Of a stretch of 64,000 bases of DNA, positions 44,686 through 64,000 are shown one piece after another. This DNA is from a phage, in the sequence record PQ400056.1. One strand, written 5' to 3'. Below the pieces are notes generated by a model. That model made no database searches. It was not told where the DNA came from and worked only from the letters and a program-made list of their open reading frames with translations. The translations under genes and the position numbers were made by a program. How positions within the stretch are numbered: the stretch's first letter is position 1; every line of letters begins with the position of its first letter.

Positions 44686-44710
44686 AATAACCTCCAATCA
44701 ATTTTTAATG

Positions 44711-45855: not shown

Positions 45856-46143
45856 TTACAGCATACTTAATACCGTTTGCCGTGTACTAATCCACATAGC
45901 AGAAAGCAGTTCTGGCGTGTGTGGCTGTTTGTAGATATCACGTAACTTTCCGATAGCGTAGATATACGCATCACGGTTATCATCGATGATAGCTTGTTCA
46001 GCCCACCGCTTAAGGCGTGCAATCTCTCGCGAGTTCTTACGCAAGATCTTTTCCGCTTTCTTAGCGGCTTTAGCCTCTAGTTCTGCTTGTACTTTGTCTA
46101 CTTCATTCACTGCAATCTGGTCATGCTGTTCATTGCAAGTCAT
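45856..46143 (-). CDS. hypothetical protein (95 aa)
   Basis: minus-strand ORF between 55 and 47; no alpha-glucosyltransferase-sized gene here. Confidence 0.45.
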   Translation of the reverse strand: MTCNEQHDQIAVNEVDKVQAELEAKAAKKAEKILRKNSREIARLKRWAEQAIIDDNRDAYIYAIGKLRDIYKQPHTPELLSAMWISTRQTVLSML

Positions 46144-46144
46144 A

Positions 46145-46378
46145 TTATTTTACCTCTGGGATATAATCAATTATTAAAGAAAATTCATCTTCTGATACAT
46201 TATAGCTATGTGAGATTGTACCCGTAAAGACCTCAAGATCCGGTGATTTGATATTGCACGGATCGATAATCACCGGAACGCCGCAATCTCTCAAAAATAA
46301 TTTGGCGAAATACGGCACAAGGTCAGTTTCAAACTCTGCTTCTTCCAGCAAACGGGAAATGTTAATTTTCAATCTCAT
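46145..46378 (-). CDS. hypothetical protein (77 aa)
   Basis: minus-strand ORF. Confidence 0.4.
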
Positions 46379-46895
46379 AAAATTGGTCCAAGCTAGGCAA
46401 TTCCTCGGTCAATACATCTTCAACCTTTGGCGCTTTCGGTTTATTGACCGATTCCTCGTAGTTGTTGATTTTATCGTAAATGTCCTGTATGAATGCCTCA
46501 TCAGCAATCTGGCACATATCAGCGTCGCGTTCGTCATATACATGATGCACAAAATATTTGTATTTTGCGGCTGTCGCTGTTCTCTCTTTTTTAATGCGCT
46601 GTACAAAAGCATTAAAGCACGCTTGCGTGATGTAAGCATGAGGATTTTTATACTTTGTCTCGTCAAAATTAATCAAACCCTTGACCGCCGCTTCGATTCC
46701 GTCGTCGATCATTTCTTCGCGCCACGTTTGACTATAACCAGAAAAGTTAAAACGACGTGATAGATTTTTAGAGATTTGCATAATTGCTAGGCCGATTTGA
46801 TCGCTCATTGGAACTTGCCGACCTTCTGCTGCAATTTGTTGTTTCCAACGGCAAATTTCTTCGTAAAGCTCTTTATTGTTTACATAATCAGACAC
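46362..46895 (-). CDS. 55: late sigma factor gp55
   Basis: [60 protein letters not shown] is near-identical to remembered T4 gp55; GTG start with GAGGGTG SD. Confidence 0.92.
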
Positions 46896-46935
46896 TTCGC
46901 ACCCTCGCTATTATTTAGGAAATAACCCTTTCGGG

Positions 46936-48405
46936 CTATTCCCCATTACCATTATACTTTCTTTGCTTAGTTATCCACACTCTAACCATCTCTACAGATT
47001 CGCCGTCAGACGGATCAAGAGTTTTTCCTTTTTTCTTCATGCGGTACTTAAATCCGTTAAATCTTGCATTCTCTTGCTCGTTAAAGTCGAACATCTTTTT
47101 AAATGATTTTCGCCCTTTACGTTCACCACATTCTAGCGGAATCATTCGATCTGTTATTACATTGGCATTAGGCAGAAACGTTTTTAGATAATCCACCAAC
47201 GCCCAATCAGGAACATATAGATTAACATTCTCCTTGCTCTCGTTGTCTCTCAGGTTACAACGCAAACATAATTGAAATGCTGGTTCCAGATAATCAGACA
47301 CATGACGCGCTTTCAAAAACTCGTTTGTCGGGAGATCACAACTATTAGCAAGACCTTTTAAAATATCAATCTCCCATCGTTGAGGGTTAAAGCTGAACAT
47401 CACAGCAACATTTTTATGATGAATGTAAGAGTTAAGACCATAAGACCCGTAAGGTATCCGCTCACCAATACCATTTGTACACGCTTCACGGTCCCGATTC
47501 ACGGTATAAATGAAGTCATCGCCACATTCATTTTTAACCATATCAACAAGACGTTCAAAGGTATTGTTTGTTTCTGACTGGTGACGCGACCATCGTTCAG
47601 AGTCCGTCATAAGGATGATATTAACTCTATCTGTATTTTTATACTCTTTGAAATATAGTCTGGATTCTAGCGCACTCGGAACAAAATCGCAATTTGCATA
47701 GTATCGTAGATACTTCCCACTATATGTATCAAAGAGATTTGCACATGCTATCGTAACCTTTTTAAAGTCTCCCCACGTACCGTGTTTGTTATCGTTCAAG
47801 AAAACAATTTTCGACCCATTCTTCCGGTGTCCTTCGTTATGTTTTACCATAACGTTGATTTTCTTCTCTAATAACGCCTCATAAAGCCCTCTAAGAGAAG
47901 AATCGATCATATCAGTACCATCCTTCGCACTTTCTATCTTTTCTTTGATAGCGGCCTTCTCAGAGTCTTTTAGAACTAAGTTCTGTAGGCATTCCGATTC
48001 GTCGGCGATTGGTTCGCAATGCTTCGTGATAAGTTCAAGATTAGACTTAAACGGATACTCATTAAATTCAACCAGTTGAGGAACTTCATCAATGTAAAGA
48101 GCATAATCACCAAACATTTTTGAACGTTCCATATTAGATAACGCTGTATGTGTAATGAATATCACATCAGCACCATCTTTAACTGATTGCATTATCGACG
48201 CTTGCACTGTCTTAAGGCTTCTTAGTCTTGTGCTATCAATCAAGACAGCACGACCGCCCATTCTTTTAAACTTATTGTAAGATTGTTCACTTAAAACACG
48301 AGATGGCGAAGCAATAACCGCTTTTTCTTTTGTCTCTAGGACGTGGGAAAGTATAGCATCAGTTTTCCCCGCCGCTGGCAATGCGATTAATGTTTCAATC
48401 TTCAT
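46936..48405 (-). CDS. P-loop NTPase of unknown function (489 aa)
   Basis: N-terminal Walker A IALPAAGKTD (residues 7-16), Walker B-like LYIDEVPQ about 95 aa later; no counterpart remembered at this position in T4; ATG 48405 with SD. Confidence 0.6.
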   Translation of the reverse strand: MKIETLIALPAAGKTDAILSHVLETKEKAVIASPSRVLSEQSYNKFKRMGGRAVLIDSTRLRSLKTVQASIMQSVKDGADVIFITHTALSNMERSKMFGDYALYIDEVPQLVEFNEYPFKSNLELITKHCEPIADESECLQNLVLKDSEKAAIKEKIESAKDGTDMIDSSLRGLYEALLEKKINVMVKHNEGHRKNGSKIVFLNDNKHGTWGDFKKVTIACANLFDTYSGKYLRYYANCDFVPSALESRLYFKEYKNTDRVNIILMTDSERWSRHQSETNNTFERLVDMVKNECGDDFIYTVNRDREACTNGIGERIPYGSYGLNSYIHHKNVAVMFSFNPQRWEIDILKGLANSCDLPTNEFLKARHVSDYLEPAFQLCLRCNLRDNESKENVNLYVPDWALVDYLKTFLPNANVITDRMIPLECGERKGRKSFKKMFDFNEQENARFNGFKYRMKKKGKTLDPSDGESVEMVRVWITKQRKYNGNGE

Positions 48406-48710
48406 TAGAAACCCTTACGTCGTGCTTTCTGGCATTTCTTGATCATTTTATCAGAAATTTCGCGCTTAGGTGCAATCTCTTTCACACCGAAAGCACTAAT
48501 GCCAAATTCAGAGAGAATATATTCAACAAACAATTCACGCACACGCGCTTTACCGATATTCACGCCGTTATTTTTCAGATATGTCTGGCCTTCGACTTGC
48601 ATCAGATCTAAATCTGCGTCGGTAATATTGATTTCTTCCATGCGCCCAAATCGAGAATAAACCATGTGTGCGATTGCATTGTGTACTAACATAATATATT
48701 CCTCACTCAA
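48405..48710 (-). CDS. hypothetical protein (101 aa)
   Basis: minus-strand ORF with TAATG overlap to the P-loop gene. Confidence 0.45.
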   Translation of the reverse strand: MSEEYIMLVHNAIAHMVYSRFGRMEEINITDADLDLMQVEGQTYLKNNGVNIGKARVRELFVEYILSEFGISAFGVKEIAPKREISDKMIKKCQKARRKGF

Positions 48711-48713
48711 GAA

Positions 48714-48872
48714 TTACTTAATGATACTTACTTTACCAGATCCATGACAATGAGCGCAACACCCATCACCACGCAATCCTGTTCCGTTACAGTGTTTACA
48801 CTTCTTCAACGGTAAAGCCATTATAGCAAATAAAGCAATAATGAATACCGAAACTAAATTCTCAATAATCAT
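48714..48872 (-). CDS. small membrane-anchored DnaJ-type zinc-finger protein (52 aa)
   Basis: not in the ORF track; hydrophobic N-terminus then CKHCNGTG and CAHCHGSG (two CxxCxGxG repeats); ATG 48872 with GAGGG SD, overlaps the nrdH stop by 11 nt. Confidence 0.4.
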   Translation of the reverse strand: MIIENLVSVFIIALFAIMALPLKKCKHCNGTGLRGDGCCAHCHGSGKVSIIK

Positions 48873-49131
48873 AAATCGCCCTCAGTTCTTTATAGCCTCC
48901 AATGTGCTCGTTGTCAATGAATATCTGGGGGTATACAAACCGGAGGCTCTTTGAGTTTAGCCTCCCCGCCAGTTCTTCAATCATATCACGGTCGGGAATA
49001 ATGTCAACCCCGACCTGCTTGAATACTGGTTTAAGTGTATACGGAATACCCAGATCATCCAGTAGCTTCATTGCACTAATACAACCATAACAATGATAAG
49101 CCTCTTTCGGTATACCGTATATCTCGATCAT
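48862..49131 (-). CDS. nrdH: NrdH-like glutaredoxin
   Basis: 89 aa; redox motif CYGC near N-terminus; position upstream of nrdG/nrdD as in T4. Confidence 0.7.
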   Translation of the reverse strand: MIEIYGIPKEAYHCYGCISAMKLLDDLGIPYTLKPVFKQVGVDIIPDRDMIEELAGRLNSKSLRFVYPQIFIDNEHIGGYKELRAIYDY

Positions 49132-49625
49132 TTCTCAGCCTTTAATCTTTCTAGTTCTTCTTCCAGTTCCTTGATCCGTTGGTCACGTTCAAAGTCACGC
49201 TGTAGCTTAGTGGCAAATACTCGCTTAAACTGATTGTAATCATCGATTTTAAACACTTCTTCTTCGCCATAGCGACGTACAGAAACTTCGTAGTTGTTGA
49301 AAAATTGTTCCAACATTGCATCAGTAGTCAGTTCTGACGACACCACTTTAAAATAACGTTCTTCTGATTGCAAAAACCAGTTGTGCGCGTATTCCCGTAC
49401 ATCATCAACATCTCGACAGGTGTATGTTTTTCCATCAATTTCAATCGCAGAAACATATTCGATATCTGACGCAATTTTTTCAAAAGCGATAACTTTAAAT
49501 GTACGGTCACCGATAAAGTCTGCTATTGCATCATTTGCAACACTGGTTGCAAATGCTTTCCGCGCTCGCTCGTTTTTCCACTGATAGGTCATACCAACAA
49601 CAAACATATTACCATCAACAAACAT
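49128..49625 (-). CDS. paralogous-family protein (WExGKTY family), member 1
   Basis: MTYQWKNERARKAF...FKVIAFEKI...IEIDGKTY...RYFKVV resembles the neighbouring paralogs; N-terminus has an 18-bp tandem duplication; start uncertain (several in-frame ATGs 49592-49649). Confidence 0.45.
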   Translation of the reverse strand: MFVDGNMFVVGMTYQWKNERARKAFATSVANDAIADFIGDRTFKVIAFEKIASDIEYVSAIEIDGKTYTCRDVDDVREYAHNWFLQSEERYFKVVSSELTTDAMLEQFFNNYEVSVRRYGEEEVFKIDDYNQFKRVFATKLQRDFERDQRIKELEEELERLKAEK

Positions 49626-49634
49626 ATTACCAAC
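49599..49634 (-). repeat. 18-bp tandem duplication (2 copies, 17/18 identical)
   Basis: plus-strand AACAAACATATTACCATC then AACAAACATATTACCAAC; duplicates GNMFVD/GNMFVV codons. Confidence 0.8.
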
Positions 49635-50451
49635 CTCGCTCTTTACCAATCAAAAATTCAACTTCACGACGTTTAATGTCTTCTTGAAGGTCTTTAATCT
49701 TCTGGCGATCTTGCATGATTTCATCCATCTTGTCAAGTGCCGCAATGAAATCATCGAAACGTTCAAAGGTTTTACCTTCATTTGCTTCGCCAAATTTAAC
49801 CATTGTCAGGCCGTAACGACTACTAAACAGACGTTTCAACTGTCCAACGATCTTAGAATCAGTGGTTATAACTTCCAATTCTTCTACTTCACGAAAGAAT
49901 TTTCTATCAGAATCAATAAACCAGCTAGTTCCTTTATGGTCTCTATCTTCGGTTGCGCTCATTAGAGTATGGTCTTTACCATCAATTTCAATTACATCAA
50001 TTTGCCCACATGGACTAACATTTTTAACAGTAAAAGGTCTATAATTTATTGCTCGTGCAATAACATAATTAAGGTTAGATACGTTTTCAGCATAATGGCA
50101 GAAGTCGGTCATAGCATTCGCATCTTTCCAAGTATAAGTTTTACCAACTTCCCATTTCTGGGGAACTTCTTCAACTTCACGAAAGAATTTTCTATCGAAT
50201 GGACTAAAGAAATATGTGGCAGTCCAAATGTCTTTTCCTGTAGCAGTTTTCGCCGTATGATAAACACCGTCTAGCTCTATTGCATCAATCCAACCGTTAC
50301 CATCGATCTCGATGATGGTAAATGGCTTGTCACCAATAGCTGCACTAATATCGCTGTTAAGTGGAGAAAGAACACCTTCTCCGTTAGTAATAAACTCAGT
50401 TTTAGCGTTTTCATCTTTCCAGGTGTAGGTTTTACCAATTTCCCATTTCAT
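49627..50451 (-). CDS. paralogous-family protein, member 2 (internal two-fold repeat)
   Basis: 274 aa; MKWEIGKTYTWKDENA ... DRKFFREVEE repeated as QKWEVGKTYTWKDANA ... DRKFFREVEE. Confidence 0.55.
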   Translation of the reverse strand: MKWEIGKTYTWKDENAKTEFITNGEGVLSPLNSDISAAIGDKPFTIIEIDGNGWIDAIELDGVYHTAKTATGKDIWTATYFFSPFDRKFFREVEEVPQKWEVGKTYTWKDANAMTDFCHYAENVSNLNYVIARAINYRPFTVKNVSPCGQIDVIEIDGKDHTLMSATEDRDHKGTSWFIDSDRKFFREVEELEVITTDSKIVGQLKRLFSSRYGLTMVKFGEANEGKTFERFDDFIAALDKMDEIMQDRQKIKDLQEDIKRREVEFLIGKERGW

Positions 50452-50463
50452 AATATATTCCCC

Positions 50464-50964
50464 TTAACCGATTTTATCAAGTTCGTTTAATGCTTTCTCT
50501 GCTTCCTGTATAGCTTGCACTCTTTCCGGCATTTTGTCAAGAAAATCTTTCAACTCTTCAAAACTGGAGATATGACGCAAGGCATTAGCACCGATAGCCG
50601 CATGTGATTTGCATTCAAAGCGAATTTTATAATTATCCATCGCCAATTTGAGAAGGTCTATTAGATCATATTCATGACCAGGCAATAAAACTTCTTTGAA
50701 GCACGCTCGGTCGCCATCGGAAAACCATATATTATCACCAACATCGATAGAACTAATATAATCCCCTTCGTGATTATAGATTGAACGTACATTACCCCAA
50801 CGGTCTACCGTAGCGACAGTAAATGGTTTATCTAGATATGTAAACACACCATCAATATTAGGTTTTTGTTCGTAACGCCAACAATCACGCAAAATGCGCT
50901 TTTCGTCCTCACCAACCAACTTATATGTCTTCCCTTCTTCCCATTTCATAATATCATCTCTCAT
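50464..50964 (-). CDS. paralogous-family protein, member 3
   Basis: 166 aa; MKWEEGKTYKL ... DRACFKEV plus coiled-coil C-terminus. Confidence 0.55.
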   Translation of the reverse strand: MRDDIMKWEEGKTYKLVGEDEKRILRDCWRYEQKPNIDGVFTYLDKPFTVATVDRWGNVRSIYNHEGDYISSIDVGDNIWFSDGDRACFKEVLLPGHEYDLIDLLKLAMDNYKIRFECKSHAAIGANALRHISSFEELKDFLDKMPERVQAIQEAEKALNELDKIG

Positions 50965-51491
50965 TTTTTGATACGTGATTCTAATTGGATCATACGGTCG
51001 CGCGTTTGCTTGTATTCGCGGATAGCACCGATCCGGCTAGGCATACCATCAAGCACGCTCTTAATCCCTTCTAGGGTAGTGATTTTAGCAATGCTATTAT
51101 GTAACCCCATCTTATCGATCAACTGAATGTCGTAGGCTTCCATAAGCAGACCCAGACGTTCTAAAGTTAGGTCTTCTTCTTTTTCTTCCGATTCTGGAAT
51201 CTTAGGTTCAATAATAACTTCGGTAAAGAAACGACGCTCACCCGACCAAAACCACACACCGGAACAGCCAATAGGGGATTCTTTTAACGTCATAGAGTCG
51301 AAATCACTACCGATAATAGTAATTTCTCTAACATCACCATCATCGTCAATGTCTTCTACCCTAAACGGGCGACCAGCCAACAAGTCAACAATACATCTGT
51401 TAATAGACGACGAAAATTTAGTCAGTTCGGCTTTCGACGCTTCGCATTCAATCTTGTAAGTTTTACCAACTTCCCATTCCATAATAATCAC
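50961..51491 (-). CDS. paralogous-family protein, member 4
   Basis: 176 aa; MEWEVGKTYKI ... ERRFFTEV plus coiled-coil C-terminus. Confidence 0.55.
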   Translation of the reverse strand: MIIMEWEVGKTYKIECEASKAELTKFSSSINRCIVDLLAGRPFRVEDIDDDGDVREITIIGSDFDSMTLKESPIGCSGVWFWSGERRFFTEVIIEPKIPESEEKEEDLTLERLGLLMEAYDIQLIDKMGLHNSIAKITTLEGIKSVLDGMPSRIGAIREYKQTRDRMIQLESRIKK

Positions 51492-51492
51492 C

Positions 51493-51996
51493 TCAAATAA
51501 TTTTCACTGGAATACTATTAACAATCTTGTATTGTACTTGATTGTCAGACCCCCGCCACGGCTTCTTCGTTGGCATATCTTTAATATAACGCCCATCGAT
51601 GAACATGTCAACTGATTCTACAATTTTTCTTTGCTCATCATTCAATTGGTCAAGGGTATAACCGGACCATAGCCAAATATCTTTATTTGGCATCCATGAT
51701 TTTACTTCATCGATGATCCGCTGTACACCCTTTAAATTGCGTTTATACAGTGGATCGCCACCTAAGAATGTTAGCCCCTGAATAAAATCAGGTCTAAGCA
51801 GGTCCAGAATCAATCCCATTGTATCATCGGTGAATGGTTCCCCGTTCTTAGGATTGAGTAGGCTAGCATTAAAGCAACCATCACATGCGTGTGAACATCC
51901 GGTAACGTAAAGGGAGACTCTCACTCCCTCACCGTTAACCATATCACAATCTTTAATATCGGCATAGCGTAGTTTGCCGTATGTATCAGAACTCAT
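51493..51996 (-). CDS. nrdG: anaerobic ribonucleotide reductase activating protein NrdG (radical SAM)
   Basis: CSHACDGC (CxxxCxxC), GLTFLGGDPLY, KDIWLWSGY, KPWRGSDNQ match remembered T4 NrdG; ATG 51996 (track start is TTG). Confidence 0.88.
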   Translation of the reverse strand: MSSDTYGKLRYADIKDCDMVNGEGVRVSLYVTGCSHACDGCFNASLLNPKNGEPFTDDTMGLILDLLRPDFIQGLTFLGGDPLYKRNLKGVQRIIDEVKSWMPNKDIWLWSGYTLDQLNDEQRKIVESVDMFIDGRYIKDMPTKKPWRGSDNQVQYKIVNSIPVKII

Positions 51997-52213
51997 ATTC
52001 AATTACCCCGAACTCGTTTACAATCTGCGCTTTATAGTAACCACCGCGAGATGCTAATAGATAAGCTGGGCTTAGGTATTCGTATTCACGGATTTCTACT
52101 TGTGCGTTTTCAGTTTCCCAAATCAGTAAAGTCCACATATTTGATTCTCCTGTAAAGTTGTATCTCGTCTTGATGAATATAGTATAGGGGATCTCGCGAT
52201 CCCCGTCAAGCAT
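51986..52213 (-). CDS. hypothetical protein (75 aa)
   Basis: minus-strand ORF just outside the inverted-repeat arm. Confidence 0.4.
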   Translation of the reverse strand: MLDGDREIPYTIFIKTRYNFTGESNMWTLLIWETENAQVEIREYEYLSPAYLLASRGGYYKAQIVNEFGVIEYEF

Positions 52214-52741
52214 TTATTTTAAATTTTTTCGAATGTAGTCAGACCATTCCTTCCCTGTCAGTTCGGTCCCATTCTGGAAACTGAAATATTCATACGGCAT
52301 CGAGTCAAGATAAAACAGGATCATACATCGCGCCATATAATACCAATCACGATTAAAGTAAACTACGTTATCGCCAGTACCATCAGCACCTTTATCATAA
52401 CCATCGCGGGTACGGGCGACCCATTGAATAGTATCATTTTTCTCACGGATCGTAACAGGTTCCCAATATCCAGCACATCCAGCATGACCACACGAACAAG
52501 TAATGAAATATTGTCCTTTTGCTTTGTTGTCATCCCATTCACGATGGATTGGTTCGATCTCGTGAAACAGTGCTAAGCAATCATGATTATGCAACACTGG
52601 CTTACCATCAATCAATGCATGGAATGTATACAAACGACCCGTAGACAAATAGCTATCCTCACGCTCAACCAGTTCAATAGCAATCTTTTTAGCTCGTTCT
52701 TTGTGTCGTTGTGCTTTACGCTTACGGTTTAATGATTTCAT
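52214..52741 (-). CDS. hypothetical Cys/His-rich protein (175 aa)
   Basis: basic N-terminus MKSLNRKRKAQRHKERAKK; HNHDCLALFHEIEPIHREW and CSCGHAGCAGYW suggest metal binding; ATG 52741 with GAGGTGA SD. Confidence 0.5.
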   Translation of the reverse strand: MKSLNRKRKAQRHKERAKKIAIELVEREDSYLSTGRLYTFHALIDGKPVLHNHDCLALFHEIEPIHREWDDNKAKGQYFITCSCGHAGCAGYWEPVTIREKNDTIQWVARTRDGYDKGADGTGDNVVYFNRDWYYMARCMILFYLDSMPYEYFSFQNGTELTGKEWSDYIRKNLK

Positions 52742-52758
52742 ATTCACCTCACACATTA

Positions 52759-53298
52759 TCAAAGGTCGCGATATAGTACATTATGAAAATGAGAACTTGC
52801 ATTACCAATATTGTAGATAATAAATTCTTCATCCGGCGCTTGCGCTACAAATTGAGTATGAGCAACCGCCACAACCTTAAAAATACGATCCGTGATCTTG
52901 TGTTTAATTTCTGCCCCTACTTCCATAGGAACATATTCATTTGTTTCTGTTTCAGTCGCAAAACAGCCATCTTCTTCATAAGCACGAACAAATCGATCGC
53001 AATCAGTACGCTTAACAAATTCAAGAGTATACAATTCTCGTGAATTGTCGGTATAGACCAATACAGAATTATTATGATAGCGAATCACATACAGGTTATT
53101 ATCATCGTCAATTACGCAAAAGCTACGGATTCCTTCGCCTTTACTCCAGCAGATATTAACCACCGTTCCTCTAATAAAAAAACTTTCCTTTAAATTAAAA
53201 CTAGTCAATGTGCTAGCGTGCATTTTAACAACAACACCATCGCCAATTTCCAGTTTACGAAGTTTAACTTCTTTGTTCAGTACACAAAACATCATCAT
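52759..53298 (-). CDS. hypothetical protein (179 aa)
   Basis: first gene after the nrdD terminator-promoter pair; ATG 53298 with GAGAGG SD. Confidence 0.5.
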   Translation of the reverse strand: MMMFCVLNKEVKLRKLEIGDGVVVKMHASTLTSFNLKESFFIRGTVVNICWSKGEGIRSFCVIDDDNNLYVIRYHNNSVLVYTDNSRELYTLEFVKRTDCDRFVRAYEEDGCFATETETNEYVPMEVGAEIKHKITDRIFKVVAVAHTQFVAQAPDEEFIIYNIGNASSHFHNVLYRDL

Positions 53299-53327
53299 GT
53301 TGTCCTCTCGTTGTTTTCGATGTGAGC

Positions 53328-53355
53328 ATTATACATTAGCTAATCATGTTGTCAA
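53328..53355 (-). promoter_or_regulatory. consensus sigma70-type promoter TTGACA, 16 nt, TATAAT
   Basis: minus-strand TTGACA (53355-53350), TATAAT (53333-53328); mirrored on the plus strand at 56596-56623 in the inverted copy. Confidence 0.6.
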
Positions 53356-53361
53356 CACCCC

Positions 53362-53393
53362 AAAACGAAAAAGCCGACCCTTTCGGATCGGCT
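53362..53393 (-). terminator. rho-independent terminator after nrdD
   Basis: minus-strand AGCCGATCCGAAAGGGTCGGCT followed by TTTTCGTTTT. Confidence 0.6.
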
Positions 53394-53398
53394 GAAAT

Positions 53399-55262
53399 TT
53401 ACATGTGCTTAACGCGGTTTACCATCTCGGAGTGTTTCCCGTGGTTGAATGGACGCAGATCAACAGATCCAAGATATCCACTAACGCGACGGATAACATT
53501 CATCTTTTCCAGATTGTCATTACCGCAATCAGGACAAACAAAACCAGACTCGGTCGCTCTCATTTCCTTAGTAGATCCGCATACATGACATACATCAGAA
53601 GGAGTATTAACACCGAAGTAGTGCAATTTATCCATTGCATAGTCTACTACAGTTTCAAGACCTTTCAGGTTGTTTTTCATGTCTGGGAACTCAACATAAG
53701 AGATCATGCCACCGGACGCCAGCCAGTGATAATCTTTCTCAAAGTCAATTTTCTCAAATGGAGTGACTTTCCGGTCTACGTCAAGGTGGAATGAGTTGGT
53801 GTACCAGTCTTTATCGGTAGCACCCTTAACAATACCAAATTGCTCTCGGTCCAGTCGATTAAATCGATAGCAAAGGCTCTCGGCTGGAGTACCGTAAAGA
53901 CTAAACCCAAGTCCGGTTTCGTCCTTCCATTTTTCAGTATAATGACGCAAGATCTTAAGAATATGTTTACCGTATCGCTGCGCATCTTCCGAATCAAACG
54001 GATGAACACCAAACAGGACGCTCAATACCTCATGTAAACCAATATATCCAAGAGAGATACTAGCGCGACCATCTTTCAACACTTCCAAAATTTCATCGTT
54101 TTGATGAATACGGAAAAACGCACCTTCGGTATACAGCACCGGAGCAACATTGGCTTTAGCCCCTTTTAAAGCGTCTACGCGACTCATGAGCGCATCAAAG
54201 CAAATAGGCATACGATTGGCTAGCTCTTGTTCGAATAGCTCAATTCTGCGCATTACAGACGCTTTACCAGCACGACGCGCGGCAATAAGGGCAATACGCG
54301 GAAGATTCAGGGTCACAACACCCAAGTTATTACGTCCGTCTAATACTTCTTCTCCTTTCTCATTATGCCACACACCCAGGAAGCTACGACAACCCATCGG
54401 GCTAACCGGAACACTAGATCCGGTGATACTACGGTTATTCTTCGCAGAGATATAATCAGGGTAAAGACGCTTACTAGAACATTCCAATGCAAGTTGCTTA
54501 ATGTCGTAGTTCGGATCTTCCGGTTTAAGGTTTAATCCTTCTTCTAAGAACATCACCAGCTTAGGAAACACCGGAGTGATACCATCTTTACCTAAACCTT
54601 TAGTTCGAACGTTCAGGATCGCTTTCTGAATCAGTTTTTTCTTCCCAGCTAGTACCCATACCAAAGGTTAAAGTCACAAAAGGCGTTTGACCGTTGGTGG
54701 AGAACAAAGTGTTGATTTCATATTCCAACGCCTGATATCCGTCTAACGTTTCTTTTTCTGTTTTCTCTTGTGCATAGAGAGTATCAGCTTTGATTCCGTA
54801 GGTTTCGGCATCAGCAAGGTGTTTATAATATGTTTTCTCAACATACGGTGCTAACACCTGATCGATGTTTGCGATTGTGGTCCCGCCATATTGATGACTT
54901 GCCACCTGTGCGATAATTTGAGCGGTTACAGCACAAGCAACGCCGATTGATTTCGGACTTTCGATTTGTGCGCTACCCAATTTAAAACCATTCTCTAACA
55001 TGTCTTTGAGATTAACAAGACAGCAGTTAGTAAACGGCATAGCGGGTGCATAATCCATATCATGATAATGAATGTCACCGTCTACATGCGCTTTATAGAT
55101 GTGCTCAGGTAACACGGTTTTAGCAATCTGTTTAGACACAGCACCAGCAATCAGATCTCGACGTGTCGGGAATGTTCGCGCGTCTTTGTTCGCGTTCTCT
55201 TTGCTTACTTCGTTTTCTTTACCCGTTGCGATCTCTGTAATGTCTTTGATTAGTTTTTCCAT
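53399..55262 (-). pseudogene. nrdD: anaerobic ribonucleotide reductase NrdD, interrupted by a 1-nt frameshift in an A6 run
   Basis: N-terminal ORF 54600-55262 (ENANKDARTFPTRRDL, FTNCCLVNLKDMLENGFKLG, TFGMGTSW) and C-terminal ORF 53399-54664 (LIQKAILNVRTKGLGKDGITPVFPKLV ... C-terminal CPDCG zinc ribbon) match remembered T4 NrdD; frames join if the A run at 54635-54640 (minus strand) is 5 nt; no intron. Confidence 0.85.
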
Positions 55263-55404
55263 TGTATCACCTATGAAAAAGCGGGATTTCTCCCGCTCGT
55301 TGATAGTTATTTTACCAGTTCTGCTAATTCTTTTTCTTTAGCTTCTAGTTCAGCTTTAAGCTGTTTAATCTCTTGTCGCTTCTTATTCATATTACGCTAA
55401 AGAA

Positions 55405-57721
55405 TAGAAGAAGGATTAAACCTTAAACCGGAAGATCCGAACTACGACATTAAGCAACTTGCATTGGAATGTTCTAGTAAGCGTCTTTACCCTGATTATA
55501 TCTCTGCGAAGAATAACCGTAGTATCACCGGATCTAGTGTTCCGGTTAGCCCGATGGGTTGTCGTAGCTTCCTGGGTGTGTGGCATAATGAGAAAGGAGA
55601 AGAAGTATTAGACGGACGTAATAACTTGGGTGTTGTGACCCTGAATCTTCCGCGTATTGCCCTTATTGCCGCGCGTCGTGCTGGTAAAGCGTCTGTAATG
55701 CGCAGAATTGAGCTATTCGAACAAGAGCTAGCCAATCGTATGCCTATTTGCTTTGATGCGCTCATGAGTCGCGTAGACGCTTTAAAAGGGGCTAAAGCCA
55801 ATGTTGCTCCGGTGCTGTATACCGAAGGTGCGTTTTTCCGTATTCATCAAAACGATGAAATTTTGGAAGTGTTGAAAGATGGTCGCGCTAGTATCTCTCT
55901 TGGATATATTGGTTTACATGAGGTATTGAGCGTCCTGTTTGGTGTTCATCCGTTTGATTCGGAAGATGCGCAGCGATACGGTAAACATATTCTTAAGATC
56001 TTGCGTCATTATACTGAAAAATGGAAGGACGAAACCGGACTTGGGTTTAGTCTTTACGGTACTCCAGCCGAGAGCCTTTGCTATCGATTTAATCGACTGG
56101 ACCGAGAGCAATTTGGTATTGTTAAGGGTGCTACCGATAAAGACTGGTACACCAACTCATTCCACCTTGACGTAGACCGGAAAGTCACTCCATTTGAGAA
56201 AATTGACTTTGAGAAAGATTATCACTGGCTGGCGTCCGGTGGCATGATCTCTTATGTTGAGTTCCCAGACATGAAAAACAACCTGAAAGGTCTTGAAACT
56301 GTAGTAGACTATGCAATGGATAAATTGCACTACTTCGGTGTTAATACTCCTTCTGATGTATGTCATGTATGCGGATCTACTAAGGAAATGAGAGCGACCG
56401 AGTCTGGTTTTGTTTGTCCTGATTGCGGTAATGACAATCTGGAAAAGATGAATGTTATCCGTCGCGTTAGTGGATATCTTGGATCTGTTGATCTGCGTCC
56501 ATTCAACCACGGGAAACACTCCGAGATGGTAAACCGCGTTAAGCACATGTAAATTTCAGCCGATCCGAAAGGGTCGGCTTTTTCGTTTTGGGGTGTTGAC
56601 AACATGATTAGCTAATGTATAATGCTCACATCGAAAACAACGAGAGGACAACATGATGATGTTTTGTGTACTGAACAAAGAAGTTAAACTTCGTAAACTG
56701 GAAATTGGCGATGGTGTTGTTGTTAAAATGCACGCTAGCACATTGACTAGTTTTAATTTAAAGGAAAGTTTTTTTATTAGAGGAACGGTGGTTAATATCT
56801 GCTGGAGTAAAGGCGAAGGAATCCGTAGCTTTTGCGTAATTGACGATGATAATAACCTGTATGTGATTCGCTATCATAATAATTCTGTATTGGTCTATAC
56901 CGACAATTCACGAGAATTGTATACTCTTGAATTTGTTAAGCGTACTGATTGCGATCGATTTGTTCGTGCTTATGAAGAAGATGGCTGTTTTGCGACTGAA
57001 ACAGAAACAAATGAATATGTTCCTATGGAAGTAGGGGCAGAAATTAAACACAAGATCACGGATCGTATTTTTAAGGTTGTGGCGGTTGCTCATACTCAAT
57101 TTGTAGCGCAAGCGCCGGATGAAGAATTTATTATCTACAATATTGGTAATGCAAGTTCTCATTTTCATAATGTACTATATCGCGACCTTTGATAATGTGT
57201 GAGGTGAATATGAAATCATTAAACCGTAAGCGTAAAGCACAACGACACAAAGAACGAGCTAAAAAGATTGCTATTGAACTGGTTGAGCGTGAGGATAGCT
57301 ATTTGTCTACGGGTCGTTTGTATACATTCCATGCATTGATTGATGGTAAGCCAGTGTTGCATAATCATGATTGCTTAGCACTGTTTCACGAGATCGAACC
57401 AATCCATCGTGAATGGGATGACAACAAAGCAAAAGGACAATATTTCATTACTTGTTCGTGTGGTCATGCTGGATGTGCTGGATATTGGGAACCTGTTACG
57501 ATCCGTGAGAAAAATGATACTATTCAATGGGTCGCCCGTACCCGCGATGGTTATGATAAAGGTGCTGATGGTACTGGCGATAACGTAGTTTACTTTAATC
57601 GTGATTGGTATTATATGGCGCGATGTATGATCCTGTTTTATCTTGACTCGATGCCGTATGAATATTTCAGTTTCCAGAATGGGACCGAACTGACAGGGAA
57701 GGAATGGTCTGACTACATTCG
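55405..57721. repeat. inverted repeat arm 2: inverted duplicate of nrdD 3' part, terminator, promoter and two ORFs
   Basis: track ORFs 55464-56552, 56653-57192 and 57189-57800 duplicate the 53399-54664, 52759-53298 and 52214-52762 products; the last acquires a different C-terminus past the repeat boundary at 57721. Confidence 0.9.
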
Positions 57722-57800
57722 CCATCTGATGGTTGCTTTTAGTGATTGCCGACAGCATCCGGGGAAGTACAATAATAAATGGGAATTGATGACCTGTTAA

Positions 57801-58060
57801 GACCTGATTTATTGGGGTAAATTTTAGGTGAAATCACTGTATAAAAAATTAAAGGGGCTGAGGATATAAATAAAATAAAATGGAGAGCCAAAGAGTCTCA
57901 GGGAACCTCCAGAAAAAAAGGGGAGGGGGGGGGGGAGAGAGTATTTATTAGTGGGTGTGGCTGTCGGGGAATTTTTATGAGGGGAATTGATGGTTCAAAT
58001 TGATTAAAAAGATGGGCTGCATATAAAAAGGGATCGGGAAAAAATATCTAAAACAGTAAC
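57801..58060. other. purine-rich low-complexity bridge with no coding capacity (probable chimeric junction)
   Basis: strong A/G bias with very few C, G run of 11 at 57925-57935, GGGGAGAGAG-type strings; separates AT-rich phage sequence from GC-rich P2-like sequence. Confidence 0.6.
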
Positions 58061-58166
58061 TCATCCAAGCATCACACATCACTATGCCGACACAGAAGAC
58101 ACCGTGCTGGAAATTCAGCGGCTGGCTACCGTCTGCCGCGACACCCTGAATGGCATGACGAAGTAA
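58061..58166 (+). other. 3' fragment of a truncated upstream ORF of the P2-like replication region
   Basis: open frame ...HPSITHHYADTEDTVLEIQRLATVCRDTLNGMTK ending 7 nt before the gene A start; 5' part absent. Confidence 0.3.
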
Positions 58167-58172
58167 ATCACT

Positions 58173-60938
58173 ATGACGGCAGAGCACATCAGGGACTGGC
58201 AACAACCGCGCCACGCAGTGGGGCGTGAAGGAACGGGGATCCCCGCTCCTGAATCCGCGCTTTCCTCCTGGCTGGATGCCTACCGGGCAGAGAACGAGCG
58301 CCGCAAGGAAATGGCTGATGCGGCGTTCTCCGCCACGCCGCTGGGCAACCTGATTAATAAAAGCCTGGACGCACAGGAAAAACAGGACAAAACCATCACA
58401 CTGGCAGGAGACGCCAGAAAACAGGCACGCGGCGCAGTGGATGAAGCCATGGCCTCGCTGCGCCTGCTGCCGTCCTATCTGCGCGATCCGCTTATTCGCC
58501 ACCTCTCCTTCCTGCGCAAAAAACAGGAAGCCGATCGCCGGAAAGGCAAAAAGAGCTGGCAGGCGGAACGCTATGCACGCGGAACCCTGCGCAAAATATT
58601 CGAACGTCTGGACCGCACCGATCACCGCTGGCTGACACCGGGTTATCGCTCCCTTGCCGGACGCGAACGCCTGGACGATTTGCTTTACCTGCCGCAGCTC
58701 AACAAACACCAGATACAGACGCTGGCCACCATGACGGCGGCGATGTTCAGCAGCACCTTCGAAAAACTCTGCGATGGCTTTGGCGCGACCGATGGCGAGC
58801 TGACCATGGATGTAACGCTGAAGGCGTATCAGATGCTGGCCCGCATGGCGTTACACCTGCACGCCATGCCTCCACATTATGACGCACTGACAACAGACAA
58901 AGACCGGAGGAACGAACCAGACACGGAGCTGCTGCCGGGCGCAATCCTTCGCCTGACCTGTGCGGAATGGTGGAAACGCAAACTGTGGCTGTTACGTTGC
59001 GAGTGGCGGGAAGAACAACTCCGCGCCGCCTGTCTGGTTTCCAGAAAAACATCGCCCTATCTGAGCCAGGACGCGTTAAGCGAGTTTCGCGCACAGCGCG
59101 AGAAAACACGCGATTTCCTGAAAAGTTTCATGCTGGAAAATGAAGACGGGTTCACGATTGATCTCGAGACGGTGTATTACGCGGGAGTAAGTAACCCGGT
59201 TCACCGTAAGGCAGAAATGATGGCCACCATGAAGGGACTGGAACTTCTGGCCGAAGCCCGTGGCGACAGAGCGGTGTTTCTGACCGTCACCTGCCCGTCA
59301 AAATACCACGCAACAACGGAGAACGGTCATCCGAACCCCAAATGGAACGGGGCCACCATGCGCGACTCCAGCGATTACCTGGTTAACACGTTTTTTGCGG
59401 CGGTCCGCAAAAAACTGAACCGCGACGGCCTGCGCTGGTATGGCATCCGCACGGTGGAGCCTCACCATGACGGCACTGTGCACTGGCATATGATGGTCTT
59501 TGCACATCCGGACGAGATTGAAACCATCGTGTCCCACGTCTGCGATATTGCCATTCAGGAGGACCGCCACGAGCTGGGCGATGACATAACTCCGCGTTTT
59601 AAGGCGGAGTATGTCGACGGCTCAAAAGGCACACCAACCAGCTACATCGCCACCTACATCGGAAAGAACCTGGACAGCCGCGCCGTGGATGGCATCGACC
59701 CGAAAACGGGCAAGCCACGCGTTGACCACGAAACCGGAAAATCAATGGCCGAGAGCGTGGAGCGCGCCATCGGCTGGGCGCGCCTTCACCGGGTCCGTCA
59801 GTTCCAGTTCTTTGGCATCCCCTCCCGTCAGGTGTGGCGTGAACTGCGCCGCCTTGCCAGCCAGATGGCACGCAATCCGGAAGGCCCGCAACGGCTGAAA
59901 GATGATGCAATGGATGCGGTACTCGCTGCCGCCGATGCCGGGTGTTTTGCCACCTACATTGAAAAACAGGGTGGCGTGCTTGTTCCACGCAAGGACTACC
60001 TGATTCGCACCGCCTACGACCTCGCAGATGAGCTGAACGATTACGGCGAACAGAGCGTACAGATTTACGGGATCTGGTCACCACTCATCGGGGAATCCTC
60101 CCGTGTGTGCACGCATCCGGATAACTGGAAATTGGTAAGACGTAAACCAGAACCAGAAGACAACGCCCACGAAAATGGTTTTGACCTTCAGGGCGGCCCT
60201 GCCGCCCCTTGGACTCGTGGCAATAACTGTCCCCGTGTACAGGAAACAGGCAACAGCGGGACAGAACAGTCGGAAGAACGGCCAGCACCGTGGCCGCAGC
60301 TTCCTGACGGCGTTGATGTGGATGAATGGATGCGCTCACTGAAACGGCACGAACGCCGGGCGCTGATGCGTTCGCTGCGTGACAAACAGGCAAAAAACAA
60401 CAGTGATGAAATGCAGAACTGGACACAGAGCCGCAAACAGCCGCGGCCTTTGCCTGATAACCACGAGTTACTCGCTAAAGAATGGCGGGAGTCTGCCGAA
60501 TCTCTCGGCCTGCATATCGGTGAACAACAGATGCTGCACCTGTTACGGGGCGGCAGTCTGTACGTTGACGGCAGCATCATTGCGCCGCAGGGATATGAAA
60601 TTGTATGTAAACCGGATACCCGACCGGACAGCCGAATCACGCAACTCTGGCAGCGCCTGAGTCGTAATCACAGCGTAAACAGCACGGAAATCCGCCATAA
60701 CCCGGTTTCCAGCTATCTGAAACAGCTCGGGGCATCAGACCCAGAAGCCGCCGCACGCCTGGCATCCACAATTCAGCAGGACCAGAACACCATGAAAACT
60801 CCCGTTACCGTGCTTTCTGACATGCTGCGCGCCATCCGTGACGCAGAGCACGCACAGAGAATCAATGAAACCACTGAACGCGCACGTCACAAGGCGGGTC
60901 TGTTGCAGGGCAAAGGCAATAGCGAGAAGAAAAAATAA
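58173..60938 (+). CDS. A: P2-type replication initiation protein A (HUH rolling-circle endonuclease)
   Basis: 921 aa, GC-rich; HUH motif VHWHMMVF and dual-tyrosine motif YIATYIGKN typical of the P2/186 gpA family; minus-strand track ORFs inside it are judged spurious. Confidence 0.85.
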   Translation: MTAEHIRDWQQPRHAVGREGTGIPAPESALSSWLDAYRAENERRKEMADAAFSATPLGNLINKSLDAQEKQDKTITLAGDARKQARGAVDEAMASLRLLPSYLRDPLIRHLSFLRKKQEADRRKGKKSWQAERYARGTLRKIFERLDRTDHRWLTPGYRSLAGRERLDDLLYLPQLNKHQIQTLATMTAAMFSSTFEKLCDGFGATDGELTMDVTLKAYQMLARMALHLHAMPPHYDALTTDKDRRNEPDTELLPGAILRLTCAEWWKRKLWLLRCEWREEQLRAACLVSRKTSPYLSQDALSEFRAQREKTRDFLKSFMLENEDGFTIDLETVYYAGVSNPVHRKAEMMATMKGLELLAEARGDRAVFLTVTCPSKYHATTENGHPNPKWNGATMRDSSDYLVNTFFAAVRKKLNRDGLRWYGIRTVEPHHDGTVHWHMMVFAHPDEIETIVSHVCDIAIQEDRHELGDDITPRFKAEYVDGSKGTPTSYIATYIGKNLDSRAVDGIDPKTGKPRVDHETGKSMAESVERAIGWARLHRVRQFQFFGIPSRQVWRELRRLASQMARNPEGPQRLKDDAMDAVLAAADAGCFATYIEKQGGVLVPRKDYLIRTAYDLADELNDYGEQSVQIYGIWSPLIGESSRVCTHPDNWKLVRRKPEPEDNAHENGFDLQGGPAAPWTRGNNCPRVQETGNSGTEQSEERPAPWPQLPDGVDVDEWMRSLKRHERRALMRSLRDKQAKNNSDEMQNWTQSRKQPRPLPDNHELLAKEWRESAESLGLHIGEQQMLHLLRGGSLYVDGSIIAPQGYEIVCKPDTRPDSRITQLWQRLSRNHSVNSTEIRHNPVSSYLKQLGASDPEAAARLASTIQQDQNTMKTPVTVLSDMLRAIRDAEHAQRINETTERARHKAGLLQGKGNSEKKK

Positions 60939-61118
60939 CCAAGAAAGAAATCATCAATTGTATGAAGGTAGAGTTTAGACATGGTAAGGACGTTCCATGA
61001 GGCACACTGTAATTTCATATAGTATTCCTCTTCCCTGTTTGATAAAAAAGTGCAATACTATAAATAGTCCAGTTAAATGTTTTTTCAATTCACTTAAAAT
61101 CAAGAGGTTACAGTTAAG

Positions 61119-62240
61119 ATGGGCGACTTAGGTGGTATTCAGTCAGATTTAGCCCAACTAGTTAGACTGGTAATAACTGAACAGTATGATGACGTTCGGT
61201 TATATGTCGCTCGCTTGGTGCGTAAATATCGGGAAACTATGCCTGCTCTATCCGAGCAGCTTGATCTTTATCTACGAAATAAACCGCAAAAGCCTGCACA
61301 AAGCCTGCGTAAGGTTACCGCACCAAAACAAGCGCTGCCTCAAACCATGCCTGTGGACGAGGAGTCAAGGCTTACCTTGCTTAAAGCACCAAATGAAAAG
61401 ATTGTGAGCAAACCTCTACTGTCCAGTCAGATAGAAGACTCACTGGATCAAATTATTCTTGAGCGGAAGCACATCGATCGCCTCAAGACTCTCGGCTTAC
61501 AACCAACACGCTCTGCCATTTTTGTTGGCCCTCCGGGTGTAGGTAAAACACTTACGGCAAGCTGGTTAGCTCAGAAATTAGGGGTTCCTTTTTACGTTCT
61601 TGATTTAACGGCAGTAATGAGCAGCTATCTGGGCAAAAGCGGAAATAACCTTCGGGCAGCTCTAGATTTTGCGAAGAAAGGGCCGTGCGTTCTTCTGTTA
61701 GATGAAATTGATTCAATCGCCAAAAAGAGAAGTGATGATTCTGATGTTGGAGAATTAAAAAGACTTGTTACCGTAATACTCCAGGAGGTTGACGAATGGC
61801 CGTCTTCTAGTTTGCTACTTGCTGCAACTAACTTCGCTGAGTTGATTGATCCAGCACTATGGAGACGTTTTGATTTAGTGCTCAATTTTGAGAAGCCAGA
61901 TAGCGAAAGTATTAAAGAAGCAATTAAACGCTTTTCAGGTCCCGACTACGCGATTTTTGCACGTTGGATAGATCTACTGGCTATTATGTTCAAAAATGAA
62001 TCTTTTAGTAATATTGAGCGTTCTATCAACAAATTCCGACGTTCGGTCGCTTTAGGTATTTCCTCAGATGAAGAGTTGATTGGGTCGTTCATTAAAGATG
62101 GTTTATCAGAATTAGACAGGAATGAACGTAAAGAAATTGCAGTTACTCTAAAAAGAAATTCTAAATTATCCCAGCATGCCATATCAGACTTAACCGGAGT
62201 CAGTAGGGATACAATTAGAAAATACAGTCAAAAAATGTAA
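61119..62240 (+). CDS. AAA+ ATPase (373 aa), candidate defence-module component
   Basis: Walker A GPPGVGKT, Walker B VLLLDEID, sensor-1 LLLAATN, arginine-finger region PALWRRFD; AAGAGG SD; AT-rich island directly downstream of GC-rich gene A. Confidence 0.85.
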   Translation: MGDLGGIQSDLAQLVRLVITEQYDDVRLYVARLVRKYRETMPALSEQLDLYLRNKPQKPAQSLRKVTAPKQALPQTMPVDEESRLTLLKAPNEKIVSKPLLSSQIEDSLDQIILERKHIDRLKTLGLQPTRSAIFVGPPGVGKTLTASWLAQKLGVPFYVLDLTAVMSSYLGKSGNNLRAALDFAKKGPCVLLLDEIDSIAKKRSDDSDVGELKRLVTVILQEVDEWPSSSLLLAATNFAELIDPALWRRFDLVLNFEKPDSESIKEAIKRFSGPDYAIFARWIDLLAIMFKNESFSNIERSINKFRRSVALGISSDEELIGSFIKDGLSELDRNERKEIAVTLKRNSKLSQHAISDLTGVSRDTIRKYSQKM

Positions 62241-62263
62241 TACAGCATAGATAAGGAGTATGT

Positions 62264-62521
62264 ATGGCGAAAACTAATTTTCTGATTGGACGCGGCGAAT
62301 TATTAACCAGCGATATTCCTGGTCCTAAAAGAGTGCCCGGAAAAGCTGAGGTTTATTCTCTTTACGAATCGAAACAACGTTTATTGCCGCAAATTGCATC
62401 TACTATAGAAAATTTTGATGATTTACCCAGTCAGGCATGTCCTTATGATTATGCTGTGGCTAAGTTGACGTTGAATCCGAGCTATATTGCACGCTCTTTT
62501 TTTTCCTGCAAAAATGCTTAA
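62264..62521 (+). CDS. small ORF (85 aa), possibly the frameshifted N-terminus of the downstream subtilase
   Basis: strong AAGGAG SD; ends 3' of a T8 run (62497-62504); removing one T fuses it in frame to the subtilase ORF. Confidence 0.45.
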   Translation: MAKTNFLIGRGELLTSDIPGPKRVPGKAEVYSLYESKQRLLPQIASTIENFDDLPSQACPYDYAVAKLTLNPSYIARSFFSCKNA

Positions 62522-64000
62522 GTCTACCGGGTTAACGTCTATTGGCAGCAGGACGGTAAAAATTACGCCTCAAAGCTGGAAGCGAAAAGTTACTGTGTCA
62601 GAAGTAACTACGACACAAATGTTTGTTGCTGGTAAAAGAGAATCCTTCAAAGAGTTACCTCATTGGGTGTCAGGACTCAAAGAGTTTTCTGACGAAGCGA
62701 TTGATTTTGCACGCATAGAACGGTTCGATGCCTATTTACCCGAAGAGCGTATTATTACCATTGGTGAGCAGGATTCTTCGTATTTTGAGGTTGGTGTTCA
62801 TTTACTGCCAGATAATGAACAAGACTTGGTTCAGCAACAATTTGTTCAGTTTGCATCAAATTTGAACATCAAAGTACATACTTCATTAGCTTTTACCGCT
62901 GGTACATTATGGTTCGTGCCAATCCAGGCCGATAGAATTACTATTAGTAAGCTTGCGAAATTTACATTTGTACGAGTAATAAGACCGGTTCCAAGATTGC
63001 GTGGGATTAGACCAATACAAAGGAACTACGGTCCTTTAGCTCAGTGTAAATTGCCTGCTGAGGGCCCCGTATCTTCAGAAATAAAAGTTGCGATTCTTGA
63101 TGGTGGTTTACCATCAGAGCACGCTATATCGCCATGGTTAAAATCCTATAGAGTTTTGGACGATCATGCAGAGGATGATCCAGACGGTTTAGAGCATGGT
63201 TTAGCTGTGTCTTCAGCCTTTTTATTTGGACCAATAAGTAATAAATCGGAAGCGAAAAGACCATACTCTTATATTGATAACTTAAGAGTTTTGGACAACA
63301 AGACCTGCCAAGAAGATCCGCTGGAACTATATCGAACTTTGGGCTTTATTGAAGAGGTATTGTTGTCTCGCCAGTATCAGTTTATCAATCTAAGTTTAGG
63401 TCCAGACCTACCAATTGAAGATACGGAAGTTCATGCATGGACTTCCGTTATTGATGATTTGTTAAGTGATGGTGAAACATTAATGACTGTTGCTGTTGGC
63501 AACAATGGAGAAATGGATCGCAAGTCTGGTAATGCAAGAATTCAAGTACCAGCCGATTGCGTTAATGCTCTTGCTGTTGGTGCTTGTGATACAGTTAATG
63601 ATACGGAATGGAAACGAGCACCATATAGCGCCATTGGGCCAGGCAGAAGTCCTGGCGTGATGAAACCGGATTTAGTTGCGTTTGGTGGTGACACAGACGA
63701 GTACTTTCATGTTTTAGGTAAAGGTAAGAAGCCTGTAATCATACCCCAGCTAGGAACAAGCTTTGCCTCTCCTTACGCCTTACGAGCAGCTGTTGGTGTT
63801 CGGGCAATTTTAGGGAACGATTTGAGCCTACTAGCAATCAAAGCTTTGTTAATTCATGCGTCAAAACAGCTTGATCATCCTTGTACAGAAGTTGGCTGGG
63901 GAAAACTTCCTGAAGACTTGAACGACATTATAGTCAGCCCTGATGGTGTTGCCCCGCTCGGAAGGTTACACAAACCCTGGACAAGGTCTCGTGGGCTCGG
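62514..64000 (+). CDS. subtilisin-like serine protease (peptidase S8), partial at window end
   Basis: catalytic motifs in D-H-S order: VAILDGG, LEHGLAV, VAVGNNGE (oxyanion Asn), GTSFASPY; ORF remains open to 64000; no SD before its own ATG. Confidence 0.8.
   Translation, partial: MLKSTGLTSIGSRTVKITPQSWKRKVTVSEVTTTQMFVAGKRESFKELPHWVSGLKEFSDEAIDFARIERFDAYLPEERIITIGEQDSSYFEVGVHLLPDNEQDLVQQQFVQFASNLNIKVHTSLAFTAGTLWFVPIQADRITISKLAKFTFVRVIRPVPRLRGIRPIQRNYGPLAQCKLPAEGPVSSEIKVAILDGGLPSEHAISPWLKSYRVLDDHAEDDPDGLEHGLAVSSAFLFGPISNKSEAKRPYSYIDNLRVLDNKTCQEDPLELYRTLGFIEEVLLSRQYQFINLSLGPDLPIEDTEVHAWTSVIDDLLSDGETLMTVAVGNNGEMDRKSGNARIQVPADCVNALAVGACDTVNDTEWKRAPYSAIGPGRSPGVMKPDLVAFGGDTDEYFHVLGKGKKPVIIPQLGTSFASPYALRAAVGVRAILGNDLSLLAIKALLIHASKQLDHPCTEVGWGKLPEDLNDIIVSPDGVAPLGRLHKPWTRSRGL

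Follow-up and report, generated by a model that had tools for sequence, protein, structure and literature searches.

The ietAS gene pair was reportedly first described on the Agrobacterium plasmid pTiC58, and IetA-IetS is said to have been listed later, by Gao et al. 2020, as a defence system. IetAS has been described as a toxin-antitoxin pair, the toxin being the protease IetS and the antitoxin the ATPase IetA (PMC5006074; PMC13069673). The pair is also listed as an anti-phage system with an abortive-infection-like character, and for a Bacillus homologue a phage trigger protein has been identified (bioRxiv 10.1101/2022.08.27.505566). An abortive-infection mode is suspected for IetAS, its mechanism being described as still unknown (PMC5006074; PMC13069673; bioRxiv 10.1101/2022.08.27.505566). 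All these statements on IetS toxicity, neutralisation by IetA and protection against phages refer to homologues other than the one reported here (PMC5006074; PMC13069673; 10.1101/2022.08.27.505566).

Here we analyse an ietAS locus found near the end of the window, by which we mean the whole stretch of 64,000 nucleotides of the phage record PQ400056.1 that was examined. In it ietA is complete, while ietS is spread over two reading frames that meet at a run of eight T and is cut short before the end of the window. The identity of the gene and the single base by which it departs from its relatives can be read directly from the alignments; that this base is an artefact rather than a mutation is what we infer from its surroundings.

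Results

Layout of the two frames around the T8 run

The initial annotation had pointed to an 85-aa ORF preceded by an AAGGAG Shine-Dalgarno (SD) sequence and ending just after a T8 run, and all these elements are present where it had placed them (Table 1). It had also remarked that the ATG of the downstream subtilase lacks an SD and that the subtilase frame is closed upstream, which is equally visible in the sequence: the bases located 5' of the ATG at 62514, CTCTTTTTTTTCCTGCAAAA, contain no SD, and a TGA at 62472-62474 shuts the frame. The TAA that ends the small ORF (62519-62521) lies 2 nt past the codon at 62514-62516. When one T is removed, the conceptual fusion is an open frame with no stop, so that the predicted joining of the two ORFs stands, whereas the predicted size of at least 580 aa does not: the fused frame has 578 codons to base 64000, of which only the first 563, to base 63954, belong to ietS, the final 46 bases being unrelated. 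In this 563-aa conceptual translation the motifs AILDGG at 276, HGLAV at 311 and GTSFASP at 497 correspond to the Asp, His and Ser of the S8 proteases.

Under a model of independent bases with the composition of the window, about 3 T runs of eight or more would be expected in 64 kb; the window itself contains a single T8 and a G11. By itself, the T8 run is therefore statistically unremarkable; the significant point is its location, exactly where the frames swap, with both frames matching one known protein. Within the prophage segment that carries the locus, the T8 is the longest homopolymer, all others being of 6 or shorter.

Table 1. Features of the window and of the split ietS gene.
Feature	Position	Strand	Remarks
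T4-type genes (DNA polymerase, gp46-like ATPase, NrdD)	first 55 kb, to 55387		Krischvirus (RB49-like) homology ends at 55387
Inverted duplicate, 2,317 bp	55405-57721		100% reverse-complement copy of 52230-54546; copies 858 bp apart
20-nt UMNK88 match	57741-57760		equals the 20 nt directly 5' of 58069 in UMNK88
Purine-rich, C-poor 308 bp (A117 G89 T74 C28) with G11 run	57761-58068		no match; interrupts E. coli sequence
E. coli prophage piece	58069-63954		from alignment with UMNK88
ietA, AAA+ ATPase, antitoxin partner, 373 aa, intact	61119-62240	+	PADLOC IetA 1e-77; Pfam AAA 2.6e-30
SD sequence AAGGAG of ietS	62253-62258	+	5 nt 5' of ATG 62264; read from sequence; RefSeq S8 peptidase starts at the same ATG
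85-aa ORF	62264-62521	+	first 80 codons of ietS, followed by five codons out of frame (SCKNA) and a TAA; not an independent gene
T8 tract	62497-62504	+	spans codons S78-F79-F80 plus base 1 of codon 81
Second-frame part of ietS, codons 81-563	62505-63954	+	rest of N-terminal domain and S8 protease domain; ietS interrupted at A563 of 741
Internal Met84 codon of ietS ('subtilase ATG')	62514-62516	+	no SD upstream; taken as the start by gene callers when the frame is interrupted
46 bases unrelated to ietS	63955-64000	+	truncate ietS in the window; UMNK88 alignment stops at 63954

The split gene is ietS of a P2-like prophage

In a full local alignment, the 5,886 bp of the prophage piece differ from a P2-like prophage of E. 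coli UMNK88 (NC_017641.1) solely in the extra T; UMNK88 and ETEC1734 both have T7 where the window has T8. The S8 family peptidase of UMNK88 (WP_001140702.1, 741 aa) starts at the ATG of the small ORF and is translated without interruption, residues 1-80 of the small ORF are identical to it, and the two frames of the window jointly reproduce IetS residues 1-563 exactly. The proposal that the N-terminus of the subtilase has been frameshifted is thus confirmed by near-identical loci having T7 and a single 741-aa gene that begins at the small ORF's ATG. The small ORF and the 'subtilase' are one gene, ietS, which encodes 741 residues when intact.

When 61119-64000 was compared by megablast with 5,426 complete E. 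coli genomes, matches were obtained in 44, and in 43 of these 44 the identity was at least 99% over query positions 1-2836, with the query one base longer than the subject. The matches at 100.0% identity among these complete genomes came from four porcine strains and one avian strain.

The gene order in UMNK88 is a replication endonuclease (P2 gpA family; Pfam Phage_GPA, 1.7e-129), an AAA family ATPase of 373 aa and the S8 family peptidase of 741 aa, followed on the opposite strand by the portal and terminase genes; the locus is a P2-like prophage with ietAS as cargo between gpA and the portal gene. In phage P2 the gpA-portal position is the variable cargo site holding tin/old. Inside the prophage piece we also observed a composition step (58173-62240 versus 61119-63954), with gpA at about 57% GC and the ietAS cargo at about 41-48% GC, as expected for cargo that is horizontally swapped at this site. 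The underlying locus, the IetAS cargo of an E. coli P2-like prophage, is already present in RefSeq in identical form, and as a finding it is ordinary.

ietA adjoins ietS upstream, in the same orientation, and its product covers positions 5-370 of the 374 of the PADLOC profile. Exact copies of the window's IetA protein occur on at least 1000 public contigs, and in UMNK88 it is annotated as 'AAA family ATPase' (WP_000502620.1). The IetS encoded by the T7 allele (741 aa) matches the PADLOC IetS profile at 6.7e-52, with residues 36-726 on profile positions 38-733 of 749, and Pfam Peptidase_S8 at 2.5e-19 over residues 271-546. The window, on the other hand, contains no uninterrupted complete ietS frame, the frame being broken after codon 80 and truncated at codon 563; judged by its predicted translation, ietS as written there cannot encode a functional IetS.

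The break falls within a predicted N-terminal domain

A search with the first 250 IetS residues returned homologues at 45-64% identity, many of them over the whole query, from sources that include Enterobacter, Burkholderiaceae, Gallionella, Pseudomonas syringae and Rhodoferax. At the site of the tract, NPSYIA(R/K)S(F/Y)FP runs unbroken in homologues at 48-60% identity, and S78, F80 and P81 are invariant in the 24 sequences of the homologue alignment. Residues 1-83 of IetS are among the most conserved of the N-terminal region. If the small ORF were the displaced start of the subtilase, its first 80 residues should match the N-terminal ends of IetS homologues, both full-length and diverged; the initial annotation had proposed this comparison, and the alignment gave that result.

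IetS residues 1-250 (62264-63014 after removal of one T) match no Pfam family, yet are strongly conserved (MSQTNFLIGRGELLT, ACPxD, NPSYIARSFFP), and the region is predicted to form a confident alpha/beta domain. In the AlphaFold model, which was built on the homologue alignment, a helix at 33-52 and a strand at 63-70 lie inside a confident N-terminal domain of about residues 30-245, the pLDDT being 93-98 for residues 31-70. Since this helix and this strand belong to one predicted domain, a break at residue 80 would cut through the domain, not between domains. Foldseek matches of the domain model were tandem-ACT-like but weak, with E of about 5e-4, TM scores of 0.16-0.33 and an rmsd exceeding 10 A, so that we assign no fold to it.

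Tract length in other genomes and assemblies

Among the complete E. coli genomes, 42 contain the 101-nt tract region, and every one of them has T7, aligning 100 bases to the 101-base query. The tract is likewise T7, in its 39-nt form, in 4 of 4 IMG/VR contigs and 2 of 2 metagenome contigs matching the flanks, none of these six carrying an indel in the tract, and the exact intact 741-aa IetS is found on at least 1000 contigs. In contrast, a collection of about 15 billion proteins includes no exact match to the 85-aa product, the product expected from T9 is also absent from the protein collection, and the small ORF has no Pfam or PADLOC match of its own. No copy of the ietS tract was found in the GTDB representative genomes by an exact-pattern scan, nor in the phages collection.

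The product expected from T6 (89 aa, ...SFFLQKCLSLPG) was found in the protein collection, on 11 contigs. Of the 10 T6 loci that were fetched, 6 have also lost single bases from other homopolymers no more than a few kb away (such as A6 to A5, T6 to T5 and C3 to C2), and some of these losses split ietA or ietS again; in three loci (L011, L016 and L019) the tract is the sole indel seen. Because most T6 contigs carry other homopolymer deletions, the T6 database entries are probably artefacts as well, and the six loci with such deletions mark the ietS tract as a recurrent miscalling site. We therefore read the T6 pattern as homopolymer undercalling and not as a contingency locus.

The T6 contigs (L011-L020, including CP164163.1, JAUANL010000002.1 and Logan runs) are annotated with an 89-aa 'hypothetical protein' (MDM4996446.1, XJJ98188.1) and a 631- or 658-aa 'S8 peptidase', the gene callers having chosen on them the same Met84 start (658-aa product). 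ietS is also found disrupted in other ways, by an ISKpn26 insertion in E. coli strain E06 (NZ_CM143910.1) and by a split into 222 + 515 aa (ENU5312572.1/ENU5312571.1); other independent disruptions of the gene thus exist, in nature or in assemblies.

The sequence around the prophage piece

The GC content rises from about 0.40 to 0.57 at 58 kb. Before this step, the stretch 46000-55387 is 97.5-98.5% identical to the best-matching Krischvirus (RB49-like) records, and the inverted duplicate that follows it is arranged in a way that resembles a snap-back or amplification chimera, or else a misjoin, where a phage contig ends. The 340 bp at 57722-58061 were aligned with the sequences that would continue the inverted phage copy and the UMNK88 segment, to see whether they are a noisy version of either, and the scores were no better than those of shuffles; this segment has no match in the phages collection, and the purine-rich stretch is unmatched in the fetched loci too. 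At the other end, the last 60 nt of the window have no match in 5,426 E. coli genomes, and the only phage match of the final 46 bases is one of 24 nt, exact, to Escherichia phage ERS-1 (E = 2e-3). An IS element at the 63955 break may be suspected from the ISKpn26 insertion in E06 and a GGAAGGT in the tail; the matches of the tail, none in the 5,426 E. coli genomes and one of 24 nt in phages, lend this no support.

The T8 is not the only private length change in the window. On the minus strand, nrdD (anaerobic ribonucleotide reductase) has a private +1 T at 54635-54640, where the window reads T6 and all 59 Krischvirus records read T5, and is broken by it into the ORFs 53399-54664 and 54600-55262. 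A third +1 T is found at 50964, with T6 in the window and T5 in 56 of 57 Krischvirus records; it falls where two small phage genes meet and causes no obvious disruption. A 1-nt indel at 44702 relative to phage ELT3 was also considered as an error and turned out to be natural variation, the region being 100% identical to phage FL37. The tail of the window is chimeric, and consists of Krischvirus sequence, an inverted duplicate, purine-rich junk, an E. coli prophage piece and an unrelated end.

Discussion

We estimate at roughly 0.7 the probability that the extra T is a homopolymer-length error of sequencing or assembly. The initial annotation had offered three alternatives, a homopolymer error, a phase-variable or programmed frameshift and genuinely overlapping genes, and the first is the best supported of them, by the position of the T in the longest homopolymer, by the chimeric tail and by the second private +1 T. 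In this scheme, one extra T in the T7 that codes for Ser78-Phe79-Phe80-Pro81 would make the frame be lost after Phe80, and translation from the genuine start (SD AAGGAG, ATG 62264) would run into a stop five codons beyond Phe80, giving a predicted T8 product of 85 residues. The prophage piece would probably represent low-coverage, co-purified DNA of a P2-like prophage that was misjoined to the end of the Krischvirus assembly. Judging by the strains matched at 100.0% identity, an E. coli propagation host of porcine or avian origin is a plausible source of this DNA. Some observations sit less comfortably with an artefact: the prophage segment contains no other error in its 5.9 kb, as would be unusual if the data were truly poor, public assemblies miscall the tract by deletion (T6) and not by insertion, and the T6 loci in which the tract is the sole indel suggest that some length variants may be real.

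Homopolymers are mutation hot spots in living cells too, and the toxin genes of toxin-antitoxin and abortive-infection modules are often inactivated. A genuine private frameshift, in which slipped-strand addition of one T in the source DNA left ietS as a pseudogene beside an intact ietA, would produce the same sequence facts as the error, and we consider it unlikely, albeit as the alternative that retains most weight. An inactive toxin could be tolerated or even favoured, for example in a phage-propagation strain, and the role of toxin in the pair has been ascribed to IetS (PMC5006074; PMC13069673); moreover, the ISKpn26 insertion of E06 and the 222 + 515 aa split would be other natural disruptions of ietS, and some T6 loci carry no other indel. 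However, T8 is unique among more than 1000 contigs, and it is found in a chimeric, junk-containing tail where another private +1 T breaks an unrelated phage gene, both of which argue against a genuine mutation.

In enterobacteria, RNA polymerase can slip on T or A runs once these reach about 8-9 bases or more, the T9 of Shigella mxiE being an example. The tract could, on this model, be a functional switch, working by phase variation, by programmed +1 ribosomal frameshifting or by slippage in a U8 transcript that tunes the dose of toxin through a little full-length IetS, and it is true that tract-length variants (T6) exist in public assemblies. We regard such a switch as very improbable. The T6 variants mostly co-occur with other homopolymer errors, and diverged homologues keep SFFP or SYFP in one frame, with no slippery site serving two ORFs. 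Length polymorphism in otherwise clean genomes, by which a phase-variable locus would be recognised, was not observed: T7 is uniform in the 42 RefSeq complete genomes, and neither the T8 nor the T9 product is present in the protein collection. Folding of 62505-62600 revealed no stimulatory RNA structure downstream of the tract (z = 0.15 versus shuffles), and its context, GCACGCTC-T8-CCTGC, has no SD-like element, no in-frame stop and no rare or hungry codon. As the 42 complete genomes and the 6 contigs without exception keep the tract at T7 and in frame, and as there is neither a stimulatory structure nor a +1 signal, the suggestion of a phase-variable or programmed frameshift is left unsupported.

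Just as improbable, in our opinion, is that a lytic Krischvirus captured a piece of the P2-like prophage of its host, with an intact ietA and a frameshifted, truncated ietS, the extra T having been selected because it inactivates the toxin and the hijacked antitoxin serving to neutralise the IetAS of the host. A weaker variant of this capture scenario would have T8 as a real allele that is partly rescued by transcriptional slippage. Were the T8 and the phage-prophage junctions physically real, they would indicate that a toxin had been inactivated or an antitoxin captured by a lytic phage, and in that case only would the locus be of biological interest; otherwise, the matter is mainly one of annotation.

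Finally, the notion of two separate, overlapping genes, an 85-aa protein and an N-terminally shorter subtilase starting at ATG 62514, to which the stop of the small ORF 2 nt past the ATG (62514-62516) could lend a termination-reinitiation mechanism, has next to no chance of being right and is refuted by the single frame seen in the intact E. coli protein and in the homologues at 48-60% identity, given also that a separate small protein is present at no homologous locus except the frameshifted T6 contigs, that the 85-aa product is absent from the protein collection, that no SD precedes 62514, that the split would cut a confidently predicted domain and that residues 1-83 are among the best conserved of the N-terminal region.

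Returning to the homopolymer error, the consequences are practical. No gene should be called at the 85-aa ORF, and the proper annotation of the subtilase is ietS, marked as frameshifted or as containing a sequencing error, in place of a protein that begins at Met84. Reinitiation at Met84 is conceivable to some degree, as the TAA lies 2 nt beyond the Met84 codon, and the product, deprived of the conserved N-terminal helix and strand and, in the window, of residues 564-741, would probably be inactive. Beyond about 55388, the final 8.6 kb or so of the window are best regarded as a probable misassembly.

How does this locus compare with the systems that it resembles? (i) It shares with the known IetAS systems the same pair in the same order, an AAA+ ATPase followed by an S8 subtilase of about 750 aa, and the S8 catalytic motifs are present in the window; in contrast to them, its ietS is broken after codon 80 and cut at codon 563. 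(ii) Genes that use slippage or programmed frameshifting, such as Shigella mxiE, prfB and dnaX, likewise have a run of identical bases at the frame junction, whereas the ietS tract shows no conserved two-frame arrangement and no stimulatory signals, and its homologues are in frame. (iii) With the UMNK88 prophage (WP_001140702.1, WP_000502620.1) the DNA is 100% identical over 58069-63954 bar one T, and the same gpA neighbour lies upstream; the differences are T8 in place of T7 and, in the window, the loss of the last 178 codons and of the portal side. (iv) Compared with public miscalls at the same tract, the window has an insertion where these have deletions (T6). It otherwise resembles the homopolymer errors of assemblies, with a 1-base change that is private and sits at the longest homopolymer, with the nrdD indel and the chimeric junctions nearby, and at an ietS tract that is itself miscalled as T6 in error-prone public assemblies.
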